Shown: positions 20,870 to 45,091 of the stretch, one piece after another
Numbering within the stretch: position 1 is the first letter of the stretch
Layout: every line of letters begins with the position of its first letter
DNA from: a bacterium
GTDB taxonomy: Bacteria > UBA8248
Direction of reading: 5' to 3'
DNA: 64,000 nucleotides
NCBI GenBank assembly: GCA_965200245.1
Contig: CBDATS010000004.1
Span: 1,120,001 to 1,184,000, forward strand
The notes under the pieces: model-generated
The model's input: the letters and a program-made list of their open reading frames with translations, nothing else
Told to the model about the DNA's origin: nothing
Database searches by the model: none
Position numbers and translations under genes: made by a program

Positions 20870-23800
20870 ATGGTTACCACCTGTCCAGGGAGAGAATTGC
20901 GACATGCTCGGAATCCGGAATTTCTTCGGCGGTTTCAACTTGACAAGTCGGAAATGTACCCGACACGATCGCATCGCCGGATGCGTACCATGAGAGCGGT
21001 GACAGGATGGTGGGGCTGCCTGGGCGGTCAGGTTTCTGCGTCCGAACCCTGCCTTTCCCTTCCCGCCGGCCGACGCTCCGCATCCCGCGGCCGCGCGTCA
21101 TCCTTCAGGGGTTTCGGACCCTGCGTCCTTGTTGGTCTGCTGCTGGCCGTTCTCCTCGCCAACCCCGCCGCCCTTGCAAACAACGAATGCGGCGACCCGC
21201 CCACCAGCGGTGGCGAGATCATATGCGACGGAGACGATCAGACCAATGCTGGGAGCGGCATCAAGTACTCGTTCCCCAGCACCGACACCGACGACTACAC
21301 CATCAAGATACAGGCAAATTCAGGCGGCACCATCAAGACCGGATCCGGCGCGAGTGCAGGCTCCGGGGCCGACGGCATCTACGTTGAAAAGCTCGGCACC
21401 GGACCCTCCAGCATCACCCTGTCGGGCGGCAGCATCCATACGAAAGGAAACGATGCCCTAGGCATCCATTCAAAAACCTCAGGCAACACCGCATCCATCG
21501 TCATGTCGGGCGGCAGCATCGATACGGAAGGGGAACGGGCCCACGGTATCCAGGCATTTCCCCACCATTCCGGCCCAACAAACACTGGCAACATCAATAT
21601 CGGCCTGAAGATCGGCAGCGTTGGCACCGGAGATTGCATGAGCAGCACCGGTTCTGGCTGCGACATCCATACAATAGGATCGTACGCCAGAGGCATCTTT
21701 GGCGACGCTGAGGTCGAACAGAAAGGCCCAAACTATTACCATCCGAGCGGCACCGTCGACATCTCCATGTCCGGCGGCGACATCCTGACGGAAGGGAGAG
21801 GCGCCCACGGCATCCATGGCCGGCACGAAGGTACCGGCAAGCTCACCGTCAACATGACCGGCGGCACCATCACGACAACCGGAAACAGCGCCTACGGCAT
21901 CTACGTACAGCGCACATGGACCGGCGACCTCGACCCCGTTGTGGTCGAGAACAGCACTATCTCCGCGGCCGGTGCGGAAGCGATCCGGCTCAACGCCGTC
22001 CCCGCCAAGATTCTGAGGCTCCGGAACAGCACGATCGAACGCGGCAACGCCGGAGACGCGATCTGGTTCAGCGGCAACACCGACGACACCCTGACGGTCC
22101 TGGGACATGAGGACGCCGGCATGACGGCCACGACCACGATCGGGGGCGATGTGGCCTTCGGCGGCGGAACCGACAGGCTCGTCTTCAACGCCTGCCTGCA
22201 GGCCGATGTCGACGACACGGGCGATACCGACTGCACGGCTGCCTATGGCGAGCTGAAGATAAGCCATACCGGCATGCTCATCGGTCTCGAGAATATCTCC
22301 AAGATCGGCTCGGGCACCGTCCGGCTGGGCGACCTGACAAGCCGGGGCAGCACGATGGCGCTGGAGGACGGTGACCTGCGCCTCACCGGCCATCTCGATC
22401 TGGGCGCCTCCGGGACGCTCACCATCCACGACGCGTCGCGGCTGATCTTCGGGGCCACGTACGACGATCAGGGCCAGCGTACTCACGGCAAGATTACCGC
22501 CGAGAAGGTGAAGTTCGACGATCCGGACTGGCAACGGCTGTTCATGGAGGATGGCGCGCTGGCGGCGGGCGATGGTATGCTCCTGGATGCGGGGAAATTC
22601 TACAAGGCCAACGGCATCACCAAGGTCGTTCCGGGGCTTTACGACCTGAACGACGCGATGCTGACGACGGTTTCGGTTGACGGTATCGTGCAGGCAGTGG
22701 ACGGTAACGAATGCGGCGACCCGGTATCGGGGACCGTTACCTGCAACGAGTTCACCTACATCTACCAGACCGACGATGCCGTCTCCCCCGCCGACCCCGG
22801 CATCGAGTACGAGTTCTCAGATACCAACGACTACATCATCAAGCTCCAAGACGGTCTTGGCGTCGACACGACAGAAGAGGATGACAGCGGCCTTTTTGGA
22901 ATGCACCGCAGCGGCGGTGACTTCACCATCGCCATGTCGGTCGTCAGTGGCAGCGACCCCGACATCCATACCGAAGGAGACAACGCCCACGGCATCCATG
23001 GGATGCACTCCGGCACCGGCGACATTGAAATCAATATGAAGGACGGCCGCATCCGCACCACAGGACGAGACGCCTACGGCATCTACGGAAGACGCGCGGC
23101 CAATGCCGGCTGCAATACCGACCCCGAAGACTACAACTGCGATATCACCATCAGGATGTCCGGCGGCACCATCGATATCAGCAGTGGTCACGGCATCGCC
23201 GGCACACACCGCAGCGGCGGTGACTTCACCATCGCCATGTCGGTCGTCAGTGGCAGCGACCCCGACATCCATACCGAAGGAGACAACGCCCACGGCATCC
23301 ATGGGATGCACTCCGGCACCGGCGACATTGAAATCAATATGAAGGACGGCCGCATCCGCACCACAGGACGAGACGCCTACGGCATCTACGGAAGACGCGC
23401 GGCCAATGCCGGCTGCAATACCGACCCCGAAGACTACAACTGCGATATCACCATCAGGATGTCCGGCGGCACCATCGATATCAGCAGTGGTCACGGCATC
23501 GCCGGCACACACCGCAGCGGCGGTGACTTCATGGTCATGGTGAGCGGCGCGACCATCTCGTCCGCTCAGGGAAACGCAATCAATCTCAATACCGAAGGCA
23601 CGGCGACTGTAGAGATCGGAGCCGGCACCACGGAGATCAGGGGCAACATCGCTGGGGCTGACAAGCTCATATTTAACCCGCTCATGGCCACGGACGAACT
23701 GACCTTCGTCCATACTGGCATGATCACGGGAGCCCCGCCCATTTCCAAGATTGGCTCGGGCACAGCTCGGCTGACCGATCTGGGCGCGGCGGGTGCGATG

Positions 23801-24681
23801 ATGTCGCTGGAGGACGGCGACCTGCGCCTGACGGAGGCCGTCCTGGAGGGGTATCCGGTGCGCAGGGGAAGCGGTCCGGACGGGCGTTCGGTGAGGTTCG
23901 GGCTCCGCGGGGGTTCCGGAACCCGCGCCGTCTCCCTCGACATGGACCTGCGTCTCGGGGCGTCGGTGGCCCCCCTCGCCGAGGCGTTCTCGGATTCCCG
24001 GGACGAATCGGCCGAGGTCGAGCTCACGGGCGAGGTCTACGCGGCCGGTCTGGGCTGGCGGGGAGACGCGTTTTTCTCCGACGTGGCGCTCGCCCACGGC
24101 CGCTCGCGCGTATCATCACGGACGCTGGAGGCCACTGGCCTGTTCAGGGGCTCGTTCGACGTGAAGCAGACCCATGCCGAAGCGAGGACAGGTCGGCTGT
24201 TCCCCGCCGGAGGCATGCGCATCACCCCGTCGGTGTCGGTGTTCGCCGGTTCCCTGGACCACGGGGGCCACACGGCGGAGGGCGCGGTGATGAGGGCCGA
24301 GATCCCGGGCTACTCGCAGGACTACCGGGGATGTCGGGCCGGGGTGGAGGTCGCGACGGCGGAGTGGCTGGAACTCTCCCCGCGCTGCGCTGGCGGCCCG
24401 ACCTGCAACTGGATCTGGCACACACCACGACGGACGGACCGGAGACGCTGACGGTGCGCAAGGCGGACCATGCCGGGGTCATAAGCTTCCCCGAGAAAAA
24501 ACGGGTGATCGGCGTGCCCCGGGAGGCGTTCCGCCTCGGTCTGGGCGTCACGCTGAAAGGCAGTTCGGATGCCTGGAGCCTGCGCCTCGGTTACCGGGGA
24601 GAATGGACCGGCGGCGAGGACGAATGGGCCGGCCGTGAGGACGAACATTCCGTGCAGGCGGGCTTCTCGATACGGTTCTAG
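20870..24681 (+). CDS. Autotransporter/adhesin with beta-helical repeat passenger and C-terminal beta-barrel; frameshifted at C4 tract 24378-24381; true start probably downstream
   Basis: Signal-like VLVGLLLAVLLANPAALA; G/T/D-rich repeats (I.T.G..A.GI); barrel-like strands continue in ORF 24331-24681, ending in VQAGFSIRF with terminal Phe. Confidence 0.78.
22904..23531 (+). repeat. Exact in-frame tandem duplication, unit 303 bp (101 aa), two copies plus 22 bp
   Basis: CACCGCAGCGGCGGTGACTTCA recurs at 22904, 23207 and 23510; the two units read identical by eye. Confidence 0.93.
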
Positions 24682-24689
24682 AACCACTT

Positions 24690-24730
24690 CCCGACAGCCC
24701 GGCAGTCCCCGTGACTGCCGGGCTGTCGGG
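24690..24730 (+). terminator. Strong hairpin right after the autotransporter stop codon
   Basis: Perfect 18-bp stem CCCGACAGCCCGGCAGTC / GACTGCCGGGCTGTCGGG with 5-nt loop and no U-tract. Confidence 0.6.
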
Positions 24731-25043
24731 CGGGGCAGTGGATCCCGGTCGGGCCCGAGGCGAAGCACCGACCGGGAAACGTCTTTCGGGCAGCACGCAA
24801 CCCCTCCCCGTAACAGGTTAACCTGGATATATGTCTCCCAAAAATCAGCGAAGGAATCAGAGGTTCACCAAAGACAAGAGGAAGAACCGAACACAAGAAC
24901 TGCAATGTCAGGTTATTCTTCAGAAATGGAACGAATGACTCGGGGTATTTCAAACCTGAAAAGATTCAAAGGATTCTCAGTCCCAGCGACCCGGGCAAGA
25001 CGCAATACGCCCCTGATTTTTCCACCCGGCCCTGAGTCAGATC

Positions 25044-26729
25044 CTACGCCGGCGGTCCGTAGGCTCCTGGTGCCAAAGCTTCGATGTCGGTCACGACGTC
25101 GAGAATGACGGGGCCCTTGTTCATGCTGAATGCCTGATCGATCGCACTCCCCAACTCGCCCGGTTTTTCCACCCGCATGCTCTCGGCACCCATCGACCTT
25201 GCGATCTCGGTGAAGTTCGTGCGGTTGAAGTGCCAGAGTTCATACGCCTTGCCGCGCTGTGCACCGCCGTAGGCGTCGTCGAAAATCCTGGTTTCCTGGT
25301 TCTGGGAGCCGTTGTTGTTCACGAGAATGACGGCGTTGATCCCCCAGCGCACGGCAGTCTCGACTTCTGCGATGTGATACCAGAAGCCCGCATCACCCGT
25401 GAAGAGGATAACGGGCCGATCGGGCGCGCCGCACTTCGCGCCGAGCGCTGCGGGGAATCCCCAGCCCAGGTGGCCCGCCGCACGCATGAAACCGGTGTCA
25501 GGACTTTTCAGGTCCAGGTAGCCGCCCGTCCACATGCCCGAATGCCCGGTATCTGCGAGCACGATGGCGTCTGGGGGCAGATGCTCGCCCAGTGTCCTGC
25601 AGACACGCTCCGGCCGCATGGGCGAAGCGTCAGAATCGAGCAGCGGCGCGAATTCCGCCCGCCACGCCGCACATACGCTCTCGACGTACGAGAGCCACGC
25701 CCCGCGTTCAGGGGCTTCTTCCGCGGTTTCGGTGAGTTTCCCAAGCGCGATTTTCGCGTCCCCGATGATGGAGGCCCTGAGCGGGTAGTTGCGTCCAAGT
25801 TCTTCCGGGTCGATGTCGAGCTGAATCGCCGCGACACCGATTTTCGGCACGCGCCAGAAATGGGTGGTCATGCCGCCCGTCTGAGTGCCGATGAAAAACA
25901 CGAGGTCGGCTTCCGATACGAGTTCGTTCGCGCATCTTCTCGAATAGGTTCCCACCACGCCGACCGAGAGGGGATGATCACCCGGAATCGTTTCCTTGCC
26001 GTTCATGGAGGTGGCAACGGGGATTTGGAACTTCTCGGCAAAGGTCACGAGTTCGGCGTTCGCGCGCGAGGTCCGGACACCGCCGCCCGCGACGATGATG
26101 GGTCGTTCGGCCCCCTTGATGACCTCGATCGCGCGGGCAATACTCGCGGGTTCGGGTTCGGGCCGGAAGGCCGGGACCTGCCTGAAGTTTTCCTCCACGA
26201 TGAGTTCGAGATCGGCCATGTCCTGTTCCACCTGTCCCAGGTTCCCGCCGAAGCGCAGGTGTACGGGGCCGGGCGTGCCCGAGGTGGCGACACGGAACGC
26301 CTGCCTCAGCAAGTCCGGGAAGCGCTCCACTGTATCCACCATGGCGTTGAACTTCGTGACGGGATCGAACGCGCTGACGTCCTCCGTTTCCTGATAGGCG
26401 TTCCTGTAGCGAATCCCGGGCGTGGTGCCGCCCGTAAGCGCGATGATGGGCGCGCAGGCCAGGTGCGCGTCGCGAAGTCCCGCCGCCAGGTTCACGCCGC
26501 CGACTATCTGTGCCATGCAGACGCCGGGGCGGCCCGAGGCGCGCGCGTAGCCGTCCGCCATGTAGGCTGCGGCCTTTTCCCCGTGGGTGAGGATACGGGC
26601 GATGCCCGTGCCGCGTTCCTCCATCTGCGCGAGGGAGTGGCTCAGAATCGTCGGCACGAAGAAAATATGGGTGACACCGTACGCGTGAAGGGCGTCAGCC
26701 ATGAACTGCGCTCCGCTCATCCTGGGCAT
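25044..26729 (-). CDS. Thiamine diphosphate-dependent enzyme (acetolactate synthase-like fold)
   Basis: THGEKAAAYMADGYAR, FRVATSGTPGPVHL, ThDP motif GDAGF...NN. Confidence 0.9.
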   Translation of the reverse strand: MPRMSGAQFMADALHAYGVTHIFFVPTILSHSLAQMEERGTGIARILTHGEKAAAYMADGYARASGRPGVCMAQIVGGVNLAAGLRDAHLACAPIIALTGGTTPGIRYRNAYQETEDVSAFDPVTKFNAMVDTVERFPDLLRQAFRVATSGTPGPVHLRFGGNLGQVEQDMADLELIVEENFRQVPAFRPEPEPASIARAIEVIKGAERPIIVAGGGVRTSRANAELVTFAEKFQIPVATSMNGKETIPGDHPLSVGVVGTYSRRCANELVSEADLVFFIGTQTGGMTTHFWRVPKIGVAAIQLDIDPEELGRNYPLRASIIGDAKIALGKLTETAEEAPERGAWLSYVESVCAAWRAEFAPLLDSDASPMRPERVCRTLGEHLPPDAIVLADTGHSGMWTGGYLDLKSPDTGFMRAAGHLGWGFPAALGAKCGAPDRPVILFTGDAGFWYHIAEVETAVRWGINAVILVNNNGSQNQETRIFDDAYGGAQRGKAYELWHFNRTNFTEIARSMGAESMRVEKPGELGSAIDQAFSMNKGPVILDVVTDIEALAPGAYGPPA

Positions 26730-26763
26730 GTATTCTGTCCTCGAAAGTGTGGGTGAAAAACCG

Positions 26764-27558
26764 TCAAATCCCTGTCAGCACTTTCGCATCATCGACGTTC
26801 GCGATTTCGCGGCCCATTTCCCTTGCAATGCGCGCGATGCGTGCGACGTGATCGGCATTGTCGCCGAGTTCACCGGGGTAAAGGTAAGGCTCATCCTCGG
26901 TACCCACACGCACGTGGCCGCCGTGCATGACCGCCATCGTCTGCATGTGAATGTGCCTGGAGCCGGTAGCGCTTGTGATGTAGATCGAATCCGCGGGCAG
27001 ATTGGAGACGCGGTGCAGGAACTCGCTCAGGGAAGGCGGCGACCACGCGCCTCCCGGACGCCCGAAGAAACACGTCATCAGAATGGGCGGTTCCAGGAGC
27101 CCTTTCTGGAGCAGATCGTCGATCATCCAGGTCTCGCCCAAGGTGAAGACCTCGAATTCCGGCTTCACGTTATAGTTCCTGCAAAGCCGCATCATCTCGG
27201 CGAGTTCCTCGCGGGGGTGAAGCATCATCACGTCGCGCGCGATGAAGGCCATGTTGTGCGCCCCCACGGCGACGGACATCATCTCGGGGTAGTTCTTCAC
27301 CACTTCCTTTCGCTGCTCGACCGTCTGGGTCGAGATGCCATACTGGAGCATGATCCCGCATCTCTCCCTGATGGCCCTGGAGTGTGACGCCCAGGCCTCG
27401 TAGTTCGTGGGCGGTGCGTGGATGTGGGCGATGCACGCGCCCGCCTCGCAGGCCTTTTCCACAGAATCGGCGAGGACTTCGGAATCCGTGAAACGCGCGG
27501 GAACACCCTCGTGCATCGAGGTGTCCGCCGCGCAGTTGATGATCATCATCTTTTCCAT
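26764..27558 (-). CDS. Beta-keto acid cleavage enzyme (BKACE/Kce, DUF849), paralogue 2
   Basis: EAGACIAHIH, VKPEFEVF, GGHVRVGTED. Confidence 0.88.
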   Translation of the reverse strand: MEKMMIINCAADTSMHEGVPARFTDSEVLADSVEKACEAGACIAHIHAPPTNYEAWASHSRAIRERCGIMLQYGISTQTVEQRKEVVKNYPEMMSVAVGAHNMAFIARDVMMLHPREELAEMMRLCRNYNVKPEFEVFTLGETWMIDDLLQKGLLEPPILMTCFFGRPGGAWSPPSLSEFLHRVSNLPADSIYITSATGSRHIHMQTMAVMHGGHVRVGTEDEPYLYPGELGDNADHVARIARIAREMGREIANVDDAKVLTGI

Positions 27559-27588
27559 GAACCGCTCCTTTATGATGCCGGAAATCCA

Positions 27589-28392
27589 TCAGGCCATGCC
27601 GAGTATCTTCTTCGTCTCATCGACCGTGGCCGGGTCGCGGCCGAGTTCGTGACCGATTCGCGCGATGCGTGCGACGAGCTGCGCGTTGTTCTCGCACAGC
27701 ACGCCCTCGGTGTAGTAGGGCTCATCCTCGGTTCCCACGCGCACGTGGCCCCCCTCGATGATGGTGACGGTCTCGAGCGCGTTCGAGGTGGGCCCTGCGC
27801 AACTGCACGAGAACACACACCCTTCAGGCAGGTGGTCGATGCGGTGGAGAAGTTCCCTGAGCGTCGCGGGGGCGTAGAAGCCACCCGGCCAGCCGAAGAA
27901 GATGGTGATGACGACGGGGTTTTCCACCAGTCCCTTGTCGAGCAGCCACTCCAGATTCCACAGGTGGCCCAGGTTAAAGCACTCGAACTCGGGCTTCACG
28001 CCGTAATCGTTGAAAAGGCGTACCTGATCCTCTATCTCCTGGCGGGAGTGTTCCACCAGCAGATCGGCGTCGACGAAGGCGAAATCATGGGAGCCCAGGG
28101 CGATGGAAGCCATATCCGGCTTCAGGTGGATGATCTTTTTTCGCCCAGGGAGGCCCATTGCGGCGATCCCGAACTGGATCAGCACCTCGGGACAGGCCTC
28201 GCGTACCGACTCGGTGAGCGGTTCCCAGCTTTCGAGTTGCATGGGGATGCCATGGATGTGGGCGATGGCCGCACCCGCCTCGTGGCTTTCCCTGACCTCC
28301 CTGGCAACGGCTTCGGGCGTCTGCAACCGCTTGGGGACGCCCGCGTGCTTGCGGCTGTCCGCCGCGCAGTTGGTGATGATGAGTTTCTCCAT
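27589..28392 (-). CDS. Beta-keto acid cleavage enzyme (BKACE/Kce, DUF849), paralogue 1
   Basis: EAGAAIAHIH, KPDMAS, VKPEFECF, GGHVRVGTED, NAQLVAR...GRDPATVDE. Confidence 0.88.
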   Translation of the reverse strand: MEKLIITNCAADSRKHAGVPKRLQTPEAVAREVRESHEAGAAIAHIHGIPMQLESWEPLTESVREACPEVLIQFGIAAMGLPGRKKIIHLKPDMASIALGSHDFAFVDADLLVEHSRQEIEDQVRLFNDYGVKPEFECFNLGHLWNLEWLLDKGLVENPVVITIFFGWPGGFYAPATLRELLHRIDHLPEGCVFSCSCAGPTSNALETVTIIEGGHVRVGTEDEPYYTEGVLCENNAQLVARIARIGHELGRDPATVDETKKILGMA

Positions 28393-28428
28393 TCAGTACG
28401 CTCCTGAGAGAGAATGGGCCTCCCGTGT

Positions 28429-29202
28429 CTAGTCCAGGGAACCTTCCACGTAGAGGAGGTTTCGTATCTTCTGCGTGAGTTCGACGAACATCTCCTCTCC
28501 CATCGTGGAGAGCGAGCGCGGCCGCGGGATGTCAACGGTGATGATCTGCGAGATGCGGCCCGGTCTCGGCGTCATGACGATTACCCGATCGCCCAGGAAC
28601 ACGGCCTCGGGGATGGAGTGGGTAATGAAGAACACGGTTTTCCTGCTCTCCAGCCAGATTCTCTGGAGTTCGAGGTTCATCTGCTCGCGCGTCATGGCGT
28701 CGAGCGCGCCGAAGGGTTCATCCATCAGCAGGACGTTCGGATCGTGAATGAGCGCGCGGATGATGGCGTTTCGCTGGCGCATGCCACCTGAGAGTTCGTG
28801 GGGGTATTTGTCCTCGAAACCATCAAGACCCACCAAGCGGATGAGATCGTGCGCGCGCGGAAGGATTTTCTTCACGTCGAGACCCAGAATCTCGGCGGGC
28901 AGCATGGTGTTCTGGAGTACGTTTCGCCACAGAAGCAAAACCGGATCCTGAAACACGATGCCCACATCGTCCCGCGGGCCGTTGATGGGCGTGTTCTTGA
29001 GCGTGCAGTCGCCAGAGGTCCTGGAGAGCAGGCCGCCCAGGATTTTCAGAAGCGTGCTCTTGCCGCAGCCGCTCGGCCCGACGACGGAGATGAACTCGCC
29101 CTCGGCGATCTCGAAGTTGATGTCGGTGAGGGCATGCACGACCTCGCGGTTCGCGGTAATGTATTCCTTCTCCAGATTCGCTACCGAAATATATCCGTTC
29201 AT
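28429..29202 (-). CDS. NitT/TauT family ABC transporter ATP-binding protein
   Basis: GPSGCGKST, LSGGMRQR, DEPFGALDAMTR, THSIPEAVFL. Confidence 0.92.
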   Translation of the reverse strand: MNGYISVANLEKEYITANREVVHALTDINFEIAEGEFISVVGPSGCGKSTLLKILGGLLSRTSGDCTLKNTPINGPRDDVGIVFQDPVLLLWRNVLQNTMLPAEILGLDVKKILPRAHDLIRLVGLDGFEDKYPHELSGGMRQRNAIIRALIHDPNVLLMDEPFGALDAMTREQMNLELQRIWLESRKTVFFITHSIPEAVFLGDRVIVMTPRPGRISQIITVDIPRPRSLSTMGEEMFVELTQKIRNLLYVEGSLD

Positions 29203-29263
29203 CTTTTCCCGAAACTCCCGGCGAATCGAGTCGTCCGGGGCCGTTTCCTCAAGAATATCGCCT

Positions 29264-30184
29264 CTAGGCGCCCATCGTCTTGTCCGTCTCCGGTGCCCAG
29301 AAAAGCACTTTTTTCTTCACGAAACGCACGACCTGGTGCATCCCCAGCCCCATGACCGAGAGGATCACCAGGATGGCGAACGTGCCCGTCGTGTCGCTGC
29401 TGAAGCTCATCTGCATAAGCAGGATCCCCAGGCCGCACTGGCCCCGGCCACCCCACATACACTGGCCGGCGCCGACGAACTCGCCGAGTATCGCGCCAAG
29501 CAGGCTGAACACCACCGCTATCTCGAAGCCCGCGAAGATGAACGGCAGGGCGTTCGGGAATTGCATCTTCCAGAACATCTGCCAGCGCGAGGCGGAGAGC
29601 GAACGCATGAGGTCTATCTGGTCGGACGCCGCGGATTTCAGCCCCACCATCGTGTTCACCAGCAGGGGGAAGAACGCCACGAGACCCGCAAGGAAAATTT
29701 TCGACTTCACCTCGTAGCCGAACCAGATGATGAACAAAGGCGCTATGGCGAGCTTGGGCAGGGTCTGGAATGCCACCACGTAGGGCATGATGATCGCCTC
29801 GATCCATTTCGACTGCATGAATACGAGCCCGAGGCCAAGACCGATGAGGCTGCCCATGAAAAAGCCCATGACGGCCTCGAACAGCGTGTGGCTAATGTGG
29901 TTGTAGAAACTCGTCTTCATCAGGCCCATGAAGTCGGCGGCCCCCCCCACGTTTCCGCCCACGTCGTAAAAGAACAGCCCGCGCAGAAGTGCCGTGGCCA
30001 CGCCCGAGGGTGCCGGGAAGATGAAGTCGTCCACCTCGAAGTAGCGCACCGTCCATTCCCAGACGATCAGAAGCACCACGAAGGATATGCCGAACAGCAG
30101 ATACGGCCTCTGGAGCAGCGTCTCGGATAACGAGGGGCCGTCCACGTTCCTGGGGGTTTCTTTCTTCCGGCTGGTAGTCGCCAC
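29264..30184 (-). CDS. NitT/TauT family ABC transporter permease
   Basis: QTLPKLAIAPLFIIWFG, FFPLLVNT, PNALPFIFAG, GAILGEF. Confidence 0.9.
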   Translation of the reverse strand: MATTSRKKETPRNVDGPSLSETLLQRPYLLFGISFVVLLIVWEWTVRYFEVDDFIFPAPSGVATALLRGLFFYDVGGNVGGAADFMGLMKTSFYNHISHTLFEAVMGFFMGSLIGLGLGLVFMQSKWIEAIIMPYVVAFQTLPKLAIAPLFIIWFGYEVKSKIFLAGLVAFFPLLVNTMVGLKSAASDQIDLMRSLSASRWQMFWKMQFPNALPFIFAGFEIAVVFSLLGAILGEFVGAGQCMWGGRGQCGLGILLMQMSFSSDTTGTFAILVILSVMGLGMHQVVRFVKKKVLFWAPETDKTMGA

Positions 30185-30196
30185 TACAGGTGCCCC

Positions 30197-31342
30197 CTAC
30201 TTTTGCATCTTCATCATCGCCTTGAACTTCTTCAATTCCCTGGCGAAGTCGAAGTTCCTGGCGCGCTTGATGACCTCGTTGCGGTCGAAGTTGTTGACCT
30301 CATCAATCAGTTCGTTGGTGTAGAGGGATTTCACCTGGGCGTCGGTGAGCTTCTTGTCAAGACCCACGAATTTCACGTATTCGGCCCATTCTCCATCATG
30401 GTGCGCGCCGAACTTGTTGATCTTCTCATCATCGAGTTTCAGCTTAGGTGCGCGCGCCTTGAGCACCTTGATCATCAAGGCGGTGGCCTTCTCGTCACTC
30501 ATGCCCTTCGGCTTGGATTCGGGATAAAGCACCCAATGGATCTGGAGCGCGGCTTCTGGATTCGTGTAGAAGAAGAGACTCCCCTTCGCCAGGCCGCGCA
30601 GGAAGCCCACCACGGTGTCGCGGTTGTCCGCCAGGAACTTCTTGTTGATCCAAACGACGTTTCCGAAGAGGTTCTGCGTCCAGCCTTCCTGGTAGGGGAT
30701 CATATCGAACTTGAAACCGCGCGCCTTCGCCAGGGTGTACTGGATGTCCACGTTCGCCCAAGCGTCCACGCGGCCGAGCTTCATCGCCGTGGCGGCCTTG
30801 GAAACCGGCCCGACGGGGAGATACGTCACGTTTTGCTTGTCGGCGGGAATGCCGCAGGTCTCGAGCGCCTTGCGCACGAAGATGGGTCCGGAATCGCGCT
30901 GGCTCATGACGCCGACTTTCTTGCCCTGCAAGTCGCATACCGACTTGATCTTGCTGCCAGGCGGTACAGCCACGCCGTCTGCGTAGATGGCGTCTCTGTT
31001 CAGGATGTAGACACCCTTGACGGGAGGCATTTTCTTGCCGCGCGCAGCGCGGAAAAGAATCGGGATCGGCCTCGGCAGGCCGACGTGCGTGCGTCCCGAA
31101 AGCACCCAGCCCATCGCCTGGGCTCCGCCCTGGGCGGCGACGAACTGCGCGTCCACACCGCTTTCCTGGTAGTAGCCCAGGAAATTTCCGATCCAGAGAA
31201 ACGATATGCCCGGGTTGAAGAGCGGGTTGGCCATCGTCACCTTGATGTTCTTGAGTTTCCTGGCAGCCCCGGATGGGGTCGGCGTCGCAATGACGAGCGC
31301 AAACAGTGTCGCGACGACGAGTACGAGTCGGAATTTCTTCAT
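30197..31342 (-). CDS. NMT1/THI5/SsuA-like ABC substrate-binding protein
   Basis: Signal peptide, GYYQESGVD, IKSVCDLQGKKVG, FLRGLAKG, YTNELI; adjacent to permease and ATPase. Confidence 0.85.
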   Translation of the reverse strand: MKKFRLVLVVATLFALVIATPTPSGAARKLKNIKVTMANPLFNPGISFLWIGNFLGYYQESGVDAQFVAAQGGAQAMGWVLSGRTHVGLPRPIPILFRAARGKKMPPVKGVYILNRDAIYADGVAVPPGSKIKSVCDLQGKKVGVMSQRDSGPIFVRKALETCGIPADKQNVTYLPVGPVSKAATAMKLGRVDAWANVDIQYTLAKARGFKFDMIPYQEGWTQNLFGNVVWINKKFLADNRDTVVGFLRGLAKGSLFFYTNPEAALQIHWVLYPESKPKGMSDEKATALMIKVLKARAPKLKLDDEKINKFGAHHDGEWAEYVKFVGLDKKLTDAQVKSLYTNELIDEVNNFDRNEVIKRARNFDFARELKKFKAMMKMQK

Positions 31343-31370
31343 GAGAGTTTTCCTTCCTGAGAGTTATGGG

Positions 31371-32156
31371 TCAGCAAGAATCCTCTTCCTGATCCTCCAA
31401 TATCGCGACCGGTCGCACCCATGAGCCGCTCGCGTCCTTCACGTTGATCGGGAAACAGCATATCTTGAAACCGTACGGCCTCGGGATTGCCCCGATGTTG
31501 GCGATCTGCTCGATCTGGAAATATTCGCGCCGTCTGCCAAGGATGTGGTGGCACGGCATGAGCGACTCACGCTTACCCGCCTTGAACTCGGGCACCTGGA
31601 AGCTGAAGGGCCTGTCGAAACCGAATGCGTCGATGCCGATGACGCGCACGCCGCGATCGAGAAGATACTCCGTCGCCGGGATGCTCATTCCCGGGTGGAG
31701 TTCGGGATAATCGGGGCTGTTCCTGTGTTCATCGGTACCCGTCCACAGGAGCACGATGTCGCCTTCCTTGACCTCGTAGCCGATTTTGGCGAGGCAATCC
31801 ATTATATCCCCTTCGGTAATCCAGTCTCCCGTTTTCTTGTATCTCAAATCCAGCACCACGCCGTCGCCGTAGCACCACTCGAGCGGCACCCTGTCGATCT
31901 TGCGCGAGGGCTTGCCCGCCACGGTGGGGCCGTAGTGCCAGGGGGCGTCCATATGGGTGGCCGAGTGGGTGGATACGGTGACGAACTCGGCCGCCCCGCC
32001 CACGCCGTCATGAAGCTCCTCCATCGGGATATCCCAGCCCTTGGCCGAGCGCGCGCCGAATTCCTCATGGTCGAGGTAGGTGACCTCGGGTGGACGTGGT
32101 TCGTTCGAGCCGTTCATGATTGGGGTGCTGAGATCGATGAATCGCGTAGCGCACAT
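31371..32156 (-). CDS. Cyclase family (kynurenine formamidase-like) metal-dependent hydrolase
   Basis: IDLS, HSATHMDAPWH, GDIVLLWTG, VIGIDAFGFD, QIE...N, P....ASGSWVRPVA. Confidence 0.88.
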   Translation of the reverse strand: MCATRFIDLSTPIMNGSNEPRPPEVTYLDHEEFGARSAKGWDIPMEELHDGVGGAAEFVTVSTHSATHMDAPWHYGPTVAGKPSRKIDRVPLEWCYGDGVVLDLRYKKTGDWITEGDIMDCLAKIGYEVKEGDIVLLWTGTDEHRNSPDYPELHPGMSIPATEYLLDRGVRVIGIDAFGFDRPFSFQVPEFKAGKRESLMPCHHILGRRREYFQIEQIANIGAIPRPYGFKICCFPINVKDASGSWVRPVAILEDQEEDSC

Positions 32157-32197
32157 AACCTTTCCTTCGCTGGTTGAAAGTCGTTTCCCCAAACCGC

Positions 32198-33433
32198 CTA
32201 GACGACCCAGAGTTTCCTCTCCTGCGGGTAGATGAACTCATATCCGGTTTCGGTGACGACGACGGTTTTCTCTATCTGGGTTCCGCCCATGCCGAATATC
32301 TGGCAGGGGTTTTCCACGCATATCGTCGTGCCCGCCTCCAGCGGGAAATCGCTCGACTCCGGCAGGAACGGGCTTCCCTGCGGCGATGGGTCCGCGAGGA
32401 CGTAGGGAACTTCGCGCTGCTCCAGTCCAATGGCGTGGCCCGCGAAGTTGCCGTTGTGTTCGGGAAATCCTGCCGCGCGGGTGGCCTCGAGCATGGTCCG
32501 GAAGATGGTGGAGCCGAGCACACCCGCCCTGACCTTCGCCATCGCGGCCTCGAAGCCCTCTTCGGTCGCCTTCCAGAGGTCGAGCTGCGCCCTGGTCGGC
32601 TCACCCAGCACGCCCCCCCAGCCGGTGTCCCCCTGGTAGTTGTTCAGGACGACACCGGCATCGAACTTCCATATCTCGCCCCTGGCGATCTTCTTGTCCG
32701 TGGGCGGGAAGATGCCCGTCGCCCGGCGGCCCGAGCAGAAGTGGAACCATTGCCACTTGCCGCCCATGCGCCCGACTTCCGCCGCGAAGACCGACGCCAC
32801 TTCGCGCTCGGTCGCTCCCTCACGCACGGCGTTCGAGGCGGCGATTCCCGCCTTCTCGTTCACCTCGGCGGCGGCGGCGAGTGCGGCAATCTCATCGGGC
32901 GTCTTGACCATGCGGATCAGGCGGAAGAAATCCGCCGCGTCGGCGATTTCCGCATCCGGCAGTGCCGCCTCTATCTGGGCGCGCACGTTCGGCATCACGC
33001 GCTCCTGATCGAGTGCGAGGCGCCCCTTCGTGAGGCCGCGTGCCTCAAGCGCAATCCCCAGGGCTTCGCCCGGGTTCCTGCCGCGTTTCCCGTCGTCGTT
33101 GTACATGTCGAGGTAGGTTTCTTCCTCGGGGGTTCGAGCCTGCTCTCCGGGCGGCTGGATGAGAGCGCTCTTTCCGCCGAAGGTGTAGAGGTCCCTGATC
33201 CAGGACTGCTGGACCGAGACGTAGGTGACCTCCTGACCCGGCACGATGAGTGCGGGGGCGACTCCCTCGTCGCACGCGAAGACGGCGAACATGTGGACAG
33301 AATAGGCGTAGACCTTGTTCGACCAGCCCACGGTGCCCGCAAGATAGGTGACGTTCTCGGGCGTGCTGGCAATCATGGCGTCGAAGCCGAAATCGGCCAT
33401 CAGCCCCCGCGCGCGATCCGCGTTCAGATACAT
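32198..33433 (-). CDS. M24 family (Xaa-Pro peptidase / creatinase-like) hydrolase
   Basis: PENVTYLAG, RMVKTPDEI, D.G....YQGD, GHAIGL, VENP, QIEKTVVVT; GGGAGG RBS. Confidence 0.88.
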   Translation of the reverse strand: MYLNADRARGLMADFGFDAMIASTPENVTYLAGTVGWSNKVYAYSVHMFAVFACDEGVAPALIVPGQEVTYVSVQQSWIRDLYTFGGKSALIQPPGEQARTPEEETYLDMYNDDGKRGRNPGEALGIALEARGLTKGRLALDQERVMPNVRAQIEAALPDAEIADAADFFRLIRMVKTPDEIAALAAAAEVNEKAGIAASNAVREGATEREVASVFAAEVGRMGGKWQWFHFCSGRRATGIFPPTDKKIARGEIWKFDAGVVLNNYQGDTGWGGVLGEPTRAQLDLWKATEEGFEAAMAKVRAGVLGSTIFRTMLEATRAAGFPEHNGNFAGHAIGLEQREVPYVLADPSPQGSPFLPESSDFPLEAGTTICVENPCQIFGMGGTQIEKTVVVTETGYEFIYPQERKLWVV

Positions 33434-33539
33434 TGTGCCTCCCTCAATCCTCAGGGGATACGGTAGACGCCGAGGCTTCCCCGTCAGGAACCCGGCGATT
33501 CCGGGCGATCCGCGTTATGTCGATAGCGGATAGCCTATC

Positions 33540-34830
33540 AAATCGACTGGGTAGTGAAAAGAGAAGCGAGGGTTCAGTGGTACGCAGTAGGTTAACTGAT
33601 AATCGTTTAATTCAGGGCATATTCAGTATATAGCAAAGATTGGAGACACCAGACAGGAATTAATCGGGATATCTTTCCCCAGTATTAATAAGATACTTAT
33701 AACTCTTACATCTCCTCGTCGTCGCGTATTTGTCGCAGGACCTTACCCTCGTACTTCCACGAATCAGGGCCGCTTACAGCTTGCCAATTCTTGCCCGTAT
33801 CGAGAAGCACGCTATTAGCGGCGTCAGACAGGCTGGTAGTTTTCCCCTTGAACATTACCTTCGAGTCGTTCACGACTTCGCAGGTTACTTTTTCGTCCCA
33901 TACCGACGTTAGAGTTGAACCGGGTTTGATGCCAACCATATTGAATTTGAAATTTTCTCGCCTATTTTTGAAGCCACCGTCATTGACATCTTCTTTCGGG
34001 GCAACATCCTTTATCCCGAACTGTTCAAGAATGGCGATTGGTTGATGGGGCGAGATTTCGAAGAACTCACGATTGGGCCTCACGCGTCGGTCCTCGAACG
34101 CTTGGTGTAGCGTTGACTCGACCTCCTTGGCATCTTGAAATTCCCACGCAGCGACGCAATCAAAGGGGTGCGGTACACCAGTGGAGTCTAATTCACGAAG
34201 TCGGTTTTTGATGGTTTTTTTAGTCTTGCCAATTTTCACGAGACCCGGCATTGTCGGGTTTGTCAGAACGTAAACGATTTCCATTTTACCTTTCCTTGGG
34301 CGCTAGTTCGGCTAAGGGGGTGTAAGCACTCTTGAGGGTCTTGGTATGTGGTAAGTACAAAGGGAGCAATGCAATAGGGGGTCATCAGGACAAGTTGAAC
34401 TCTCCAACCATTTTGAACACGGTGACACCATCAAGGAACAGGCACATCAACTTGATCAGTCTCACATCTTCTCTATCGCTCTTACCCAGACCTTTCTTCT
34501 CTTCTGATATCCTTTCACTTACTTTCGTTCATGCTACCAGAGTTTGTAATTTTTGCATATTATTCCCAATCTATATCATAATCGCCCAGAACTACATCTT
34601 GTGGTGGTTTATCCACGTTGTGATTAGCCCCGAATCAGAATATGGTGGCCGGTTCTTCAAGGGCGTAGTCACGGTTTTTGCTTTCTGATTGATTCCCACC
34701 AATAGCGGGGGTTCTTGGACCTGTCGGAGAGGGTCTACGCTCATGGGTTAACTTGATTTGTACCTGAGCGCATTGCACTAAGATTCAGTCCGAAAAATTT
34801 CAGCTACCCTTGCATTAGTGCGCAGTGGCG
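33540..34830. other. Low-GC islet, probably horizontally acquired (approximate boundaries)
   Basis: Visibly more AT-rich than the flanks; carries a nuclease gene and degraded ORF fragments. Confidence 0.6.
33706..34284 (-). CDS. GIY-YIG nuclease family protein (T5orf172/MUG113 type) with RAMA/DUF4357-like C-terminal domain
   Basis: VYVLTNPTMPGLVKIGKT...RLREL..TGVP.PF...E..LH..F...R..PNREFF; C-terminal F.G...SLS.AA.......SGP..W. Confidence 0.8.
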   Translation of the reverse strand: MEIVYVLTNPTMPGLVKIGKTKKTIKNRLRELDSTGVPHPFDCVAAWEFQDAKEVESTLHQAFEDRRVRPNREFFEISPHQPIAILEQFGIKDVAPKEDVNDGGFKNRRENFKFNMVGIKPGSTLTSVWDEKVTCEVVNDSKVMFKGKTTSLSDAANSVLLDTGKNWQAVSGPDSWKYEGKVLRQIRDDEEM

Positions 34831-34979
34831 GGCCGGGTTACAGGGTTCGGAGGTAGTTCATCTTCCGTGAAGAATTTGGGCCCAGGCCCAAAATTGACGC
34901 AGCCCGTCAAAGGTCATAGAGTGGACCATAATGGTTCTTGGGAAGAGTCCTGCAAACGCCTTTCGCGCGAGGAATCGTC

Positions 34980-35495
34980 ATGACGACTTTCCTGCAGACG
35001 CTCATCCGTCCCGACAGGGAGGAAAGCGGCCAGCGCGCCGAAGTCGCCAAGGCGGCGAGCCTGCTCCAGGTGGGGGAATTCCAGTTCCTCCAGCTCGCCT
35101 ACAGCGAATGGCACGGGGAGGAAATGTCCGAAGAACTCATCAACAACCTGTTCATGTCCTACATGCTCTATGATCAGGTGCCTTGCTGGGCGCGCCACCA
35201 CGCTCACCAGATACTGGCTCTGGACAAACGAGGCGAGTTGAACGAGAACGACCCCGCCTATCACAGGTACGACAAGGATTACGGCAAAAGGTTTCCCGGG
35301 GACATCAAGCGATTCATCGTGACCGCCACCCTCATGGTGTCGATCATGACCGGAATCGTCTGGCTCAGTCACCTCGTAGCCGGGGAGAGCACCTCTTTCC
35401 TGCCTCCCTATTTCGAGAAAAAAGAATTGAAGAAGATGGGGAAAGAGCGCAAGATCGAGGACACATCCCTGACTACGGGCCGTTACAGCAGATAG
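34980..35495 (+). CDS. Hypothetical membrane-anchored protein
   Basis: Genome-typical codon usage, GAGGA RBS, one TM segment near the C-terminus. Confidence 0.65.
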   Translation: MTTFLQTLIRPDREESGQRAEVAKAASLLQVGEFQFLQLAYSEWHGEEMSEELINNLFMSYMLYDQVPCWARHHAHQILALDKRGELNENDPAYHRYDKDYGKRFPGDIKRFIVTATLMVSIMTGIVWLSHLVAGESTSFLPPYFEKKELKKMGKERKIEDTSLTTGRYSR

Positions 35496-35524
35496 AGAGG
35501 ATTCCCTACAGAACCGAGGCCGAC

Positions 35525-35725
35525 ATGTTCGATTTCGCAGGCGAGAATCAACAGGCCGTAAACTTCATCTTCCTGTTCGTCACGGGATTCATCGCCATCA
35601 AGGCGATCCGCACGAAAAATCCCGACGGCGGATCCGATTTCGTGCACCTGCTCTTCGGCTGCATCGCCGCGGTGTTCTTCTTTCTGGTCCTGTTCCAGGA
35701 CGTGCTCAACATCGTGCGCTTCTAG
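35525..35725 (+). CDS. Small two-TM membrane protein (66 aa)
   Basis: MFDFAGENQQAVNFIFLFVTGFIAIKAIR...HLLFGCIAAVFFFLVLFQDVLNIVRF after GAGG RBS. Confidence 0.65.
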   Translation: MFDFAGENQQAVNFIFLFVTGFIAIKAIRTKNPDGGSDFVHLLFGCIAAVFFFLVLFQDVLNIVRF

Positions 35726-35768
35726 ACTGCAACTCCTTCAAATTTGCAGAAACGCTCCTCCCGAAAGC

Positions 35769-36383
35769 TCAGGGCTTGTACATCCGCTGTGCCCTGTCGA
35801 TTTCCGGAACGCGGAGCAGGCGTTTTTCCGGCGGGAGGATGAGTTGTTCTTTCAGATAAATCGCGCGTTTGCGCACGGTGGATGGATTCGGCGTGCCGTA
35901 GATCACCTTGTCGATGATCCCGGGTCCGTCAACCGCCCCCCAGTCGGCCCTGAGCGCCTCGACGTAATCGGCGAGCGCCTCCCTGTAACGGCCTCGCCTG
36001 TCATGGACGATGCCCCGGTTGGCGTAGGCCGCCGCCATGACGCCTCCGCCCGTCGGGTCGTCGGGTTTCAGGTTTTTCTTGAGATAGTCGATCAGGTAGG
36101 TGAGCTCGGCCAAGGCCTTGTCGTATTGCTTCGTCTGGATAAACACAAGCGCGCGTCCCATCAGCGCGCCGCGGTGATTGGGCCGTTCGTGCAGCGCCCG
36201 GTTGAAACTCGCCAGAGCCTCCTCGTAGTTCCCCTCGGTCAGGCGGATGTCACCCTCCCTGGTGGCGTAATCCCCGGGAGCTTCATTGGCGTACATCGCC
36301 CACAACGCCCACAGGGAGAACATGACGAAGATGAGAATCGCCATGTTCTTGATGAAGCGCTTGAGCACACGCGGGTTCATCAT
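35769..36383 (-). CDS. Membrane-anchored tetratricopeptide repeat protein
   Basis: N-terminal TM, GNYEEALASFNRAL, AAYANRGIVH...YREALADY; ATGA overlap with the upstream gene. Confidence 0.82.
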   Translation of the reverse strand: MMNPRVLKRFIKNMAILIFVMFSLWALWAMYANEAPGDYATREGDIRLTEGNYEEALASFNRALHERPNHRGALMGRALVFIQTKQYDKALAELTYLIDYLKKNLKPDDPTGGGVMAAAYANRGIVHDRRGRYREALADYVEALRADWGAVDGPGIIDKVIYGTPNPSTVRKRAIYLKEQLILPPEKRLLRVPEIDRAQRMYKP

Positions 36384-39305: not shown

Positions 39306-39620
39306 GCTCCTGTCTCTTTCCCTTATAGCCCGCAAGACGGGCACCATGCAAACAAAAGCGGGGAAACTACCCCTTCCCGGAAACAGGGTCAAGAGGGCGC
39401 AGAATGCGCGGCAGGTTCCATCCATCCCCACCTCGATTCCGGCCCGGACACCCCTGTACTTCATACGAATTATTTTTCACGCGCGCGCTTGAAAACGCAC
39501 CCTCCTATCCTTTAGACTTCCCCTGCGGTTTTGGGGAAACAATACATTTTTTCGCGGTTTCGGGAGTTGCGGTTGTGCGCTTCGCCCTGTCGCACTATGG
39601 CCCGGAGGATACGCTTCATC

Positions 39621-40289
39621 ATGATGAGTTGGCTCCCGGAGAATATTTCTATCGAAGGAGAGGAAATCGATTTTCTCTTCTACATCTCCTACTACCTGAC
39701 GGCGATCGTCTTCATTCTGGTCACCGTCGTCATGGCGTATTTCATCATCAAATACCGCGCCAGGCCGGGCGTGAAGGCGAAATACACGCACGGCAACAAC
39801 ATTCTGGAAATTCTCTGGACGGTAATCCCTTCATTCATTCTGCTCGTTTTCATTCTGATGACGCAGACCTCCTGGGCAAAGCTCAAGCTGGCCATTCCCC
39901 AGAACCCGCCCGTGCGCGTCGAGGTGACCGGCAAGCAGTTCAACTGGATCGTCCGATATCCCGGAGACGACGGCAAGTTCGGCACCAAGGACGACTTGGT
40001 ACTCGACAACCAGTTGAACGTCCCGGTGAACAAGCAGGTGTTCATCGCTCTCAAGGGCGCCGACGTCATCCACAGTTTCTTCATACCCCAGGCCCGCATG
40101 AAGCAGGACGTGGTTCCGGGCCGAACGATTCCGCTGTGGTTCACGCCGACCAAGGTGGGTAAATTTGAAATCCCGTGCGCGGAACTTTGCGGCTTCGGGC
40201 ATTCCGGCATGAACGGAGAGTTCATCGTCCACTCCGAGGCGGACTACGCGAAGTGGCGCAAGAAGGCATGGGAAGAGAAAGACAAGTAA
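39621..40289 (+). CDS. coxB: Cytochrome c oxidase subunit II (CuA, no fused cytochrome c)
   Basis: LEILWT, DVIHSF, CAELCGFGHSGM. Confidence 0.95.
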   Translation: MMSWLPENISIEGEEIDFLFYISYYLTAIVFILVTVVMAYFIIKYRARPGVKAKYTHGNNILEILWTVIPSFILLVFILMTQTSWAKLKLAIPQNPPVRVEVTGKQFNWIVRYPGDDGKFGTKDDLVLDNQLNVPVNKQVFIALKGADVIHSFFIPQARMKQDVVPGRTIPLWFTPTKVGKFEIPCAELCGFGHSGMNGEFIVHSEADYAKWRKKAWEEKDK

Positions 40290-40384
40290 ACGGCCTTATC
40301 CATGAGGGCGTGCGCCCTTTTTCTTGAACGTGTCGGCGGAAGCTTTTCTCCGATAAACCAAATTTACGAGGGATTCAGGAAACC

Positions 40385-42346: not shown

Positions 42347-42379
42347 CGCCGCCGCAAACCACCCCGGGAGAGAACGCGC

Positions 42380-44211: not shown

Positions 44212-44219
44212 GGAAGCCA

Positions 44220-44330
44220 ATGGACAAGTCGCAGACAAAGAACAGGAACCGGCGCACCGGGGTGTTTCTGGTTCTGTTCATCGTCTGTCTGGCCGCGTTC
44301 GCGTGGACCGTGGCCATCCTCAAGAACTAG
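44220..44330 (+). CDS. 36-aa single-TM peptide in the cox operon
   Basis: AAGGAAG RBS; MDKSQTKNRNRRTGVFLVLFIVCLAAFAWTVAILKN fills the gap between ctaB and the first subunit III gene. Confidence 0.55.
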   Translation: MDKSQTKNRNRRTGVFLVLFIVCLAAFAWTVAILKN

Positions 44331-44337
44331 AGAGGAG

Positions 44338-45039: not shown

Positions 45040-45061
45040 TGACGCGGAAGCCGCCAAAACA

Positions 45062-45091
45062 TTGACACTTTCTCTGGGCAGGTGGCATACT
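45062..45091 (+). promoter_or_regulatory. Internal sigma70-like promoter in the cox operon
   Basis: TTGACA (45062-45067), 18-nt spacer, TG-G-CATACT. Confidence 0.45.

Follow-up and report, generated by a model that had tools for sequence, protein, structure and literature searches.

We analysed a window of 64,000 nucleotides (contig CBDATS010000004.1, positions 1,120,001 to 1,184,000, of assembly GCA_965200245.1; coordinates without a prefix are those of the window) from a sponge-associated member of the Nitrospinota, a relative of marine nitrite-oxidising bacteria, whose genome measures 3.68 Mb in 15 contigs and is 95.8% complete. Eight genes on its minus strand are the subject of this work. 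The first encodes an M24 metallohydrolase of 411 aa with Creatinase_N and Peptidase_M24 domains (32198-33433; PF00557, E-value 3.3e-32, and PF01321, 2e-08), and the second a cyclase-family metal hydrolase (31371-32192; PF04199, 1.1e-34). Then follow the three genes of an ATP-binding cassette (ABC) importer, namely an NMT1/THI5-like (NitT/TauT) substrate-binding protein with a signal-peptide-like N-terminus (30197-31342; PF09084, 5.4e-24), a permease (29264-30184; PF00528, 1.1e-27) and an ATPase (28429-29202; PF00005, 2.7e-30). Two paralogous beta-keto acid cleavage enzymes (BKACE) come next, BKACE1 with 267 aa (27589-28392; PF05853, 9.8e-58) and BKACE2 with 264 aa (26764-27558; PF05853, 9.5e-50), and the last gene encodes a three-domain thiamine diphosphate (ThDP) enzyme (25044-26729; PF02776, PF00205 and PF02775, domain E-values 2.2e-39, 6.3e-31 and 1.5e-23). 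All eight Pfam assignments exceed the gathering scores and agree with the families given by an initial annotation of this DNA. That annotation had also described co-directional genes with short gaps and no regulator, and the coordinates match: from the ThDP end to the M24 end the gaps between open reading frames (ORFs) are 34, 30, 36, 61, 12, 28 and 5 nt (range 5-61 nt), and a Pfam search of the window proteins found no regulator among the ORFs flanking the operon. The cyclase probably starts at Met13 (32156), because its homologs measure 255 aa; in that case the gap to the M24 gene is 41 nt and not 5. The observation of the eight genes is confirmed.

The gene set recurs in related genomes, as a cluster search proposed in the initial annotation now demonstrates. 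We searched 42 loci with BKACE1 relatives by tblastn, dropping matches that covered less than half of the query, and 22 of these loci (numbered below with the prefix L) were of Nitrospinota type. Twelve of the 22 hold all eight genes in the order of the window (L002-L007, L009, L013, L014, L016, L020 and L021), so the arrangement is not a product of chance. Seven loci end at contig edges (L001, L012, L015, L017, L018, L019 and L022), and three are uncut variants, L008 being without the transporter genes and L010 and L011 without the second BKACE. BKACE1 relatives at 76-95% identity come from metagenome-assembled genomes (MAGs) labelled Nitrospinota, Nitrospinaceae or just 'bacterium', and the gene order persists between genera even where identity drops to about 70%. 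Moreover, an M24 ortholog of at least 60% identity is present in 39 of 51 Nitrospinota genomes and absent from all eight genomes (completeness 92-100%) of two other families. More distant M24 paralogs, at about 38-47% identity, usually number two per Nitrospinota genome, and the source genome has two (41% and 39%).

The eight genes are not a fixed set. A scan with the M24 alignment returned 42 loci, 25 of which were inspected; among them L049 lacks the first BKACE, and L064 and L065, from MAGs labelled Tectomicrobia, carry the operon with one BKACE and inserted extra genes. Together with L010 and L011, these loci indicate that either BKACE alone can suffice. An obligate heteromer of BKACE1 and BKACE2 was rejected as well, since all five loci are uncut and retain a single BKACE. 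Additions also occur. In L014, from a free-living marine member of the Nitrospinaceae, the ThDP gene is followed by genes for a CocE/NonD (S15) hydrolase, a dehydrogenase like 3-hydroxyisobutyrate dehydrogenase (HIBADH) and a short-chain dehydrogenase/reductase (SDR), and the opposite strand carries a family III CoA-transferase and a second ThDP gene, 47% identical to that of the window. By tblastn, L013, L016 and L017 have this downstream ThDP copy as well (47-49% identical, on the opposite strand), and they probably carry the extension of L014, as their downstream layout matches. In L002, the two BKACE genes flank an ORF of 526 aa on the other strand that matches no Pfam family (L002:10868-12448, minus), and in several further loci a gap of 0.3-0.8 kb precedes the ThDP gene.

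The operon is possibly expressed. In two metatranscriptome libraries of one study, 70% and 52% of the sampled words were present, and contigs from these RNA libraries cover all eight genes, with 16 of 17 and 17 of 19 pieces at 99% identity or above. Over the M24 gene the contigs end at 33505 and 33487. Positions 33868-35000 and most of 24268-25035 have no such cover, which we do not count as evidence; nor do we count sequencing runs in which small shares of the words occur. The contigs lend slight support to expression, as carry-over of DNA is possible.

We read the eight genes as one catabolic operon that degrades an imported small organic compound, and we put the chance that this reading is right at about even. 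The most likely class of substrate, somewhat more probable than not, is a nitrogen-containing ring, either a lactam or a cyclic amidine. The properties of the single enzymes bear on both statements.

Residues D258, D269, H333, E374 and E388 of the M24 enzyme correspond, when aligned, to the five metal-binding residues of prolidase 1pv9 and are invariant in 10 relatives (alignment A1). The best NCBIfam match reaches 84 bits against a cut-off of 850, and the equivalogs PepQ (73 against 630), DoeA (48 against 613) and DddP (44 against 600) are likewise far off; the closest solved relatives are aminopeptidase P (85 bits) and prolidases (73 bits), and creatinase 1chm scores 32 bits. The cyclase matches PF04199 with 120 bits and has the HxxxHxDxxxH metal motif, of which H76, H80, D82 and H86 are invariant in 11 relatives. 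It is no kynurenine formamidase or arylformamidase equivalog (TIGR03035, 33.5 bits against 223). Its closest solved relatives are the isatin hydrolases 5nna and 4j0n. Isatin hydrolase opens a lactam to isatinate, a 2-oxo acid of the sort on which ThDP decarboxylases act; such a reaction would fit the pairing of cyclase and ThDP genes that we found in 59 of 78 loci (see below). The match is just about 32 bits, however, and no isatin-pathway genes lie nearby. Ectoine degradation offers a precedent for an M24 enzyme and a deacylase on a nitrogen heterocycle: the M24 enzyme DoeA opens the cyclic amidine, and DoeB then removes an acyl group. Here the DoeA score is low, the aminotransferase and dehydrogenase of that route are absent, and the ectoine route for its part has no BKACE or ThDP enzyme. 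A route through creatinine and creatine, with the cyclase as creatininase and the M24 enzyme as creatinase, was set aside because the M24 enzyme keeps its metal ligands and matches creatinase with just 32 bits; it also leaves BKACE with no substrate.

The resemblance of the M24 enzyme to aminopeptidase P and prolidases, with all five metal ligands kept, is what first recommends a different use of the operon, in which a proline peptide or cyclic dipeptide would be degraded, the cyclase opening the lactam of a diketopiperazine, the M24 enzyme acting as prolidase on Xaa-Pro, and BKACE and the ThDP enzyme serving another, linked purpose. In L067, moreover, an M24-ThDP gene pair adjoins PutA and Opp/Dpp-type permeases, and the extension of L014 adds a hydrolase of S15, the X-Pro dipeptidyl-peptidase family. 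We nevertheless consider this use improbable: amino acids are not beta-keto acids, so that four of the eight genes would stay unexplained; the importer is not of Opp/Dpp type; the PepQ score is far below its cut-off; and the cyclase pairs across phyla with ThDP and BKACE genes, not with M24.

Under the reading as a catabolic operon, the two BKACE enzymes would act downstream of the hydrolases. They match PF05853 with 196 and 170 bits (cut-off 24.8) and are 45% identical to each other. When both are aligned to Kce of lysine fermentation (2y7d), the HxH motif, the PEFE glutamate and R..ED are kept, and all six residues H46, H48, E143, R226, E230 and D231 of Kce are matched in both paralogs; Ser82 of Kce is replaced by Gly in both. 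In Kce these residues are the Zn ligands (HxH and a Glu), the catalytic Glu and the active-site Arg and Asp. Both paralogs share the fold family of Kce and retain its HxH...E zinc site and catalytic glutamate, and Kce is also the best match in both NCBIfam and the PDB. In contrast to Kce, the two proteins are paralogs without a lysine-fermentation context, and they score 164 and 143 bits against the cut-off of 382 of the Kce equivalog NF052387. Other models fare worse, with 101-121 bits for TAL (NF053538, cut-off 430), in the C-terminal half only, and 132 bits at best for the 3-oxoadipate model (NF053568, cut-off 350). The BKACE reaction converts a beta-keto acid and acetyl-CoA to acetoacetate and an acyl-CoA with one Zn, according to PMC11961710. 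The source genome has no BKACE genes other than the two operon copies. Relatives of BKACE2 at 62-69% identity occur in Beta- and Alphaproteobacteria, and in the nearest ones outside the Nitrospinota, from Betaproteobacteria, a gene for an FMN-dependent 2-hydroxyacid dehydrogenase adjoins in all four annotated loci. A tblastn search (1e-15, 60% coverage) found no FMN-dependent dehydrogenase of this proteobacterial-cluster kind in the source genome.

The ThDP enzyme has three TPP domains, and its catalytic glutamate E51 is invariant in alignment A3. Its best NCBIfam match is PRK06112 (350 bits against 673), and it stays below the equivalog cut-offs of acetolactate synthase (ALS; TIGR00118, 334 against 538), Gcl (260 against 791) and Xsc (235 against 676). 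Over the whole protein, the closest solved relative is BbmA (246 bits), and ALS (205 bits) and 2-hydroxyacyl-CoA lyase (HACL; 201 bits) are about equal. The middle domain alone gives a different ranking, with BbmA at 88 bits, HACL/S (lyase/synthase) and oxalyl-CoA decarboxylase (OXC) at 85, glyoxylate carboligase at 79, pyruvate oxidase at 63 and ALS at 55. ESM Atlas describes the protein just as 'putative thiamine pyrophosphate-binding protein', and we found no paper in the literature on BbmA or CsmA, its best solved relatives. The CoA-dependent ThDP systems, oxalyl-CoA decarboxylase with formyl-CoA transferase and 2-hydroxyacyl-CoA lyase/synthase, resemble the present operon in that the ThDP gene adjoins the gene of an enzyme that makes its acyl-CoA substrate, a part that BKACE, a family III CoA-transferase or a SucCD-like ligase would play for our subfamily, and in the middle domain, which here comes closest to HACL/OXC if BbmA is set aside. 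A CoA-transferase or ligase provides the acyl-CoA esters that HACL/OXC-type enzymes cleave (PMC11271303 and PMC7176365).

The importer is of NitT/TauT type, with an NMT1-type binding protein, one permease and one ATPase. Such importers are known for nitrogen- or sulfur-containing solutes. The binding protein matches SsuA_fam with 66 bits against a cut-off of 163, and the best NCBIfam matches of the ATPase are SaoA and TauB (220 bits against 360 and 357); with every match below its cut-off, the importer is no equivalog of the taurine, sulfonate, nitrate or Sao systems. Among 83 homologs of the binding protein, every named one with an identity of 52% or higher is labelled Nitrospinota or Nitrospinaceae, one stands at 43% and 35 at 36% or less, and none of the 83 belongs to an informative ligand family. 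Two binding-protein genes in tandem, 88-94% identical to that of the window, occur in each of the operons of L021 (5753-8185) and L022 (3-2028).

Since the best named transporter matches are taurine, sulfonate and Sao systems, an organosulfur osmolyte, a sulfonate or a sulfonium compound, has to be weighed as substrate. The M24 enzyme would then be a DddP-like lyase (DddP is an M24-family lyase acting on a sulfonium compound) or an amidase of taurine conjugates, and the ThDP enzyme a desulfonating enzyme like Xsc. Both Xsc and DddP are among the weak matches, and genes of the TauD family adjoin the operon in L009 and a BKACE-ThDP pair in L024. However, the Xsc and DddP scores given above lie not only far below their cut-offs but also below those of ALS and prolidase, respectively; the operon contains no sulfite exporter or sulfite oxidase, and the two BKACE enzymes would have no role. 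Hence, we give this substrate little credence.

The relations between these families in other phyla also bear on the argument for one pathway. Among 525 cyclase relatives, the best 80 stretches represent 79 loci, and after exclusion of five operon loci we examined 74, at 40-50% identity. A BKACE gene lies in the flank of 17 of the 74 and directly adjoins the cyclase gene in 15, and many of the 17 are from anaerobic Deltaproteobacteria. The minimal unit is seen in L112, with a TrmB regulator, cyclase, BKACE and a Liv-type ABC importer; L127 has a cyclase-BKACE pair with Liv-type ABC genes upstream and a gene of the NAD-dependent epimerase/dehydratase family directly before the cyclase. For the ThDP enzyme, the best 80 relatives at 55-64% identity were taken, two operon orthologs were excluded, and the neighbours of the other 78 were counted by de novo clustering of neighbouring ORFs, then Pfam and tblastn. 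The cyclase family leads with 59 of the 78 loci, mostly directly upstream of the ThDP gene, followed by TctC binding proteins (37), family III CoA-transferases (27), enzymes of the mandelate racemase/muconate lactonizing enzyme (MR/MLE) group (19), CitE-like lyases (6), BKACE-like proteins (5) and SucCD-like ligases (3, with both subunits in two loci and one in L190); M24 genes were found in none. A separate link joins M24 and ThDP genes: outside the operon, a ThDP gene 47-55% identical to ours directly adjoins the M24 gene in 14 of 16 loci (L067-L082), 13 of the 14 being from marine Alphaproteobacteria (Rhodobiaceae, OCS116). In L069 and L081, this pair is accompanied by an ABC system and by genes for a family III CoA-transferase, a CitE-like lyase, an FMN-dependent 2-hydroxyacid dehydrogenase, a HIBADH-like protein and a protein like dihydrodipicolinate synthase (DHDPS).

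The source genome itself holds a second operon of this kind (C4:542107-546861; L169:9090-13861, minus strand), which encodes a cyclase-family protein (96 bits), SucC-like and SucD-like proteins and a ThDP enzyme (C4:542107-543768, found by tblastn) 64% identical to that of the window. The same arrangement is present in L172 and L173 from other Nitrospinota. From the 78-locus survey and this second operon, the ThDP subfamily is repeatedly found alongside a cyclase-family hydrolase and a CoA thioester-forming enzyme, the latter being BKACE in the window and a CoA-transferase or ligase elsewhere.

The same surveys raise the question whether the eight genes make one pathway at all. Unrelated modules (M24-ThDP, cyclase-BKACE and the transporter) might share one transcription unit, or the unit might make a metabolite. 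That the modules stand apart in other phyla, and that parts are lost in some Nitrospinota (the ABC genes in L008, one BKACE in L010, L011 and L049), is compatible with this possibility. We nonetheless judge it unlikely, given the constancy of gene order across genera and an importer dependent on a binding protein, which points to uptake. Moreover, the three-way links of cyclase with BKACE, cyclase with ThDP and M24 with ThDP are more easily explained if the enzymes share intermediates. These links also leave unsettled the linear order of the initial annotation, in which two hydrolyses precede C-C cleavage, as elsewhere the families combine in three different pairs.

A precedent exists for the pair of cyclase and BKACE. 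The anaerobic phloroglucinol cluster of Clostridium scatologenes places a Mn-dependent ring-opening hydrolase of the cyclase family and a BKACE in one pathway to acetoacetate and an acyl-CoA, and dihydrophloroglucinol cyclohydrolase (DPGC), the hydrolase in question, cleaves a C-C bond ahead of BKACE, according to PMC10470551. The window is similar in encoding a cyclase-family hydrolase and BKACE together, where we liken the cyclase to DPGC by family and description. It differs in that the cluster depends on two redox enzymes, an SDR reductase and a hydroxyacid dehydrogenase, and comprises no M24 enzyme, ThDP enzyme or ABC importer. The interpretation of the initial annotation is supported as to the families, the single unit without a regulator and the conservation, whereas nitrogen need not be part of the substrate, since a cyclase-family enzyme can cleave a C-C bond and an M24 enzyme, DddP, is a lyase of a sulfonium compound.

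With DPGC and the BKACE TAL cooperating in C. scatologenes (PMC10470551), a nitrogen-free substrate becomes conceivable for our operon: a cyclic beta-diketone, a phloroglucinol-type phenol or a pyrone, on which the cyclase would act as retro-Claisen C-C hydrolase or lactonase before BKACE cuts the polyketo acid. The 17 cyclase-BKACE loci, many of them from anaerobic Deltaproteobacteria, would agree with it, and the SDR and HIBADH-like genes added in free-living marine Nitrospinaceae are of the redox kinds that the phloroglucinol pathway needs. In the window, however, the operon has neither reductase nor dehydrogenase, the paralogs reach the TAL model weakly and over half its length, the M24 and ThDP enzymes would have no role, and NitT/TauT importers are known for solutes with nitrogen or sulfur. 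A nitrogen-free substrate therefore seems unlikely to us, if somewhat less so than the proline, organosulfur and multi-module explanations.

For the preferred reading, a catabolic operon for an imported small organic compound, we propose the following course. The NitT/TauT-type ABC system would import the compound, and the M24 enzyme and the cyclase would open its ring, remove an acyl or amidino group, or do both, to give a beta-keto acid. BKACE would then cleave this acid with acetyl-CoA to acetoacetate and an acyl-CoA. The ThDP enzyme would cleave or decarboxylate beside a carbonyl, most likely on the acyl-CoA from BKACE, as a 2-hydroxy- or 2-oxo-acyl-CoA, or on a free 2-oxo acid. A 2-hydroxy- or 2-oxo-acyl-CoA would fit because FMN-dependent dehydrogenases and CoA-transferases are seen as partners elsewhere. 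CoA-transferases and thiolases encoded elsewhere would turn acetoacetate into acetyl-CoA, and the source genome has at least two thiolases and five subunit pairs of family I CoA-transferases. Which of the two hydrolases acts first, the bonds cut and the identity of the substrate are our suppositions from the enzyme families. A related product is known from the oxidative deoxyribonate pathway, where BKACE-type cleavage yields a 2-hydroxyacyl-CoA, glyceryl-CoA, according to bioRxiv 10.1101/205583. This is the kind of compound proposed here as ThDP substrate; otherwise that pathway is a sugar-acid route with dehydrogenases and without M24, cyclase or ThDP enzymes.

Several observations weigh against this course. 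No reaction is assignable from the sequence to any enzyme of the operon, as every one falls below its NCBIfam equivalog cut-off. The operon includes no redox enzyme or aminotransferase, and the beta-keto function would therefore have to be latent in the substrate already. No acetoacetyl-CoA synthetase above the cut-off was found in the genome, the best candidate scoring 391 bits against 521. Membership in the BKACE family does not guarantee the reaction either: the cis-epoxysuccinate hydrolase 5zmy is a member without it, and groups G6 and G7 do not perform it, according to PMC4922564 and the NetSyn preprint. Furthermore, the cyclase and BKACE partners seen elsewhere are distant, at 40-50% and 26-35% identity, and a gene whose product forms CoA esters lies near just about 35 of the 78 ThDP relatives.

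The residues of the ThDP enzyme add to these doubts. In HACL/S, Arg260 binds the acyl-CoA and Arg276 binds ADP, as stated in PMC11271303. In our enzyme, R260 corresponds to Gly and R276 to Gln, where chain 8vzc is numbered 3 above the ApbHACL/S of that paper, an offset deduced from the Arg positions of the chain itself. Among the ThDP relatives, an invariant Arg264 lies four residues past this site, in a subfamily-specific insertion of 7 residues. The N-terminal motif YQE, in place of F/Y-E, is presumably ALS-like (it resembles the FQE of ALS) and would thus favour a free 2-oxo acid as substrate. Judged on R260 and R276, and on the likeness of YQE to the ALS motif, the enzyme appears to fall outside the HACL/S subfamily; the equal ALS and HACL scores of the whole protein are a further difference from the CoA-dependent systems.

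The initial annotation had recognised no described pathway in this gene combination, and we agree, as none of the enzymes reaches an equivalog cut-off and we found no description in the literature of a pathway with this combination. The main texts of the NetSyn and ASMC preprints name no cyclase, M24 or thiamine partners of BKACE, and their supplements may list such contexts. New are the pairings across phyla and the link between the ThDP subfamily, cyclase hydrolases and CoA-activating enzymes. Tentatively, and with the odds against it, they might reflect an unrecognised scheme common to several phyla, in which a cyclase would open a ring, the product would be activated with CoA by BKACE, a family III CoA-transferase or a SucCD-like ligase, and a dedicated ThDP subfamily, distinct from ALS and HACL/OXC, would cleave the acyl-CoA; the Nitrospinota would have added the M24 enzyme and a lineage-specific importer.

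The upstream intergenic region (33434-33705, minus strand), presumably promoter and leader, has no Rfam match, and an Rfam scan of 24000-36000 with E-values up to 1 gave no match at all; therefore, no known riboswitch hints at the ligand. Sigma-70-like promoter sites numbered 0 against 2.3 expected by chance, and the 11 terminator-like sites do not stand out from the 8.5 that chance would give. Upstream regions of eight Nitrospinota loci align with a mean column identity of 41%, are poorly conserved between genera and contain no conserved structured element. An ATTTGA-like word at about 33540-33550 (minus strand) is the only upstream piece common to loci of several genera, with counterparts in L002, L010, L011, L013, L014 and L016. 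The flanking ORFs encode a T5orf172/MUG113-domain protein just upstream (33706-34284, minus strand), a protein of 1193 aa with no Pfam or NCBIfam family directly downstream on the opposite strand (20870-24451, plus strand) and a TPR protein. G+C falls to 0.528 in 34001-36000, compared with about 0.60, and small neighbouring ORFs there have no family; together with the T5orf172/MUG113 gene, this stretch may be a small inserted element.

Farther off, the window encodes a TAXI-type tripartite ATP-independent periplasmic (TRAP) transporter with an NMT1_3 binding protein and a fused DctM, and after it a family III CoA-transferase and an enoyl-CoA hydratase (7985-13700, plus strand); this CoA-transferase (about 11675-12862) is 61.5% identical to its counterpart next to the extended L014 operon. 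At 39531-46810 (plus strand) stands a cytochrome c oxidase cluster with COX2, COX1, a CtaA-like gene, two COX3-like ORFs and DUF420. Elsewhere (L167:6797-8507; G000:C4, about 330800-332500), a DarTG-type pair, made up of a DarT-like ADP-ribosyltransferase and a macro-domain protein, lies about 760 nt from an M24 paralog, which itself adjoins a TAXI-TRAP transporter.

In the ocean, nitrite is oxidised mainly by Nitrospinota, which are commonly regarded as autotrophs; urea and cyanate are, to our knowledge, their sole known organic nitrogen sources. A conserved importer-plus-enzyme operon that is present, judged by its M24 ortholog, in 39 of 51 genomes and represented in RNA-library contigs points to a specific organic substrate. 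If the less probable scheme common to several phyla were true, the M24 enzyme and the importer would give nitrite oxidisers of the open ocean and of sponges access to the carbon, and possibly the nitrogen, of a single dissolved heterocycle. Moreover, the three family pairings involve hundreds of uncharacterised genes of bacteria from soil and sea. To characterise one member would therefore extend annotation to many others, and might uncover a reaction new for a ThDP subfamily.

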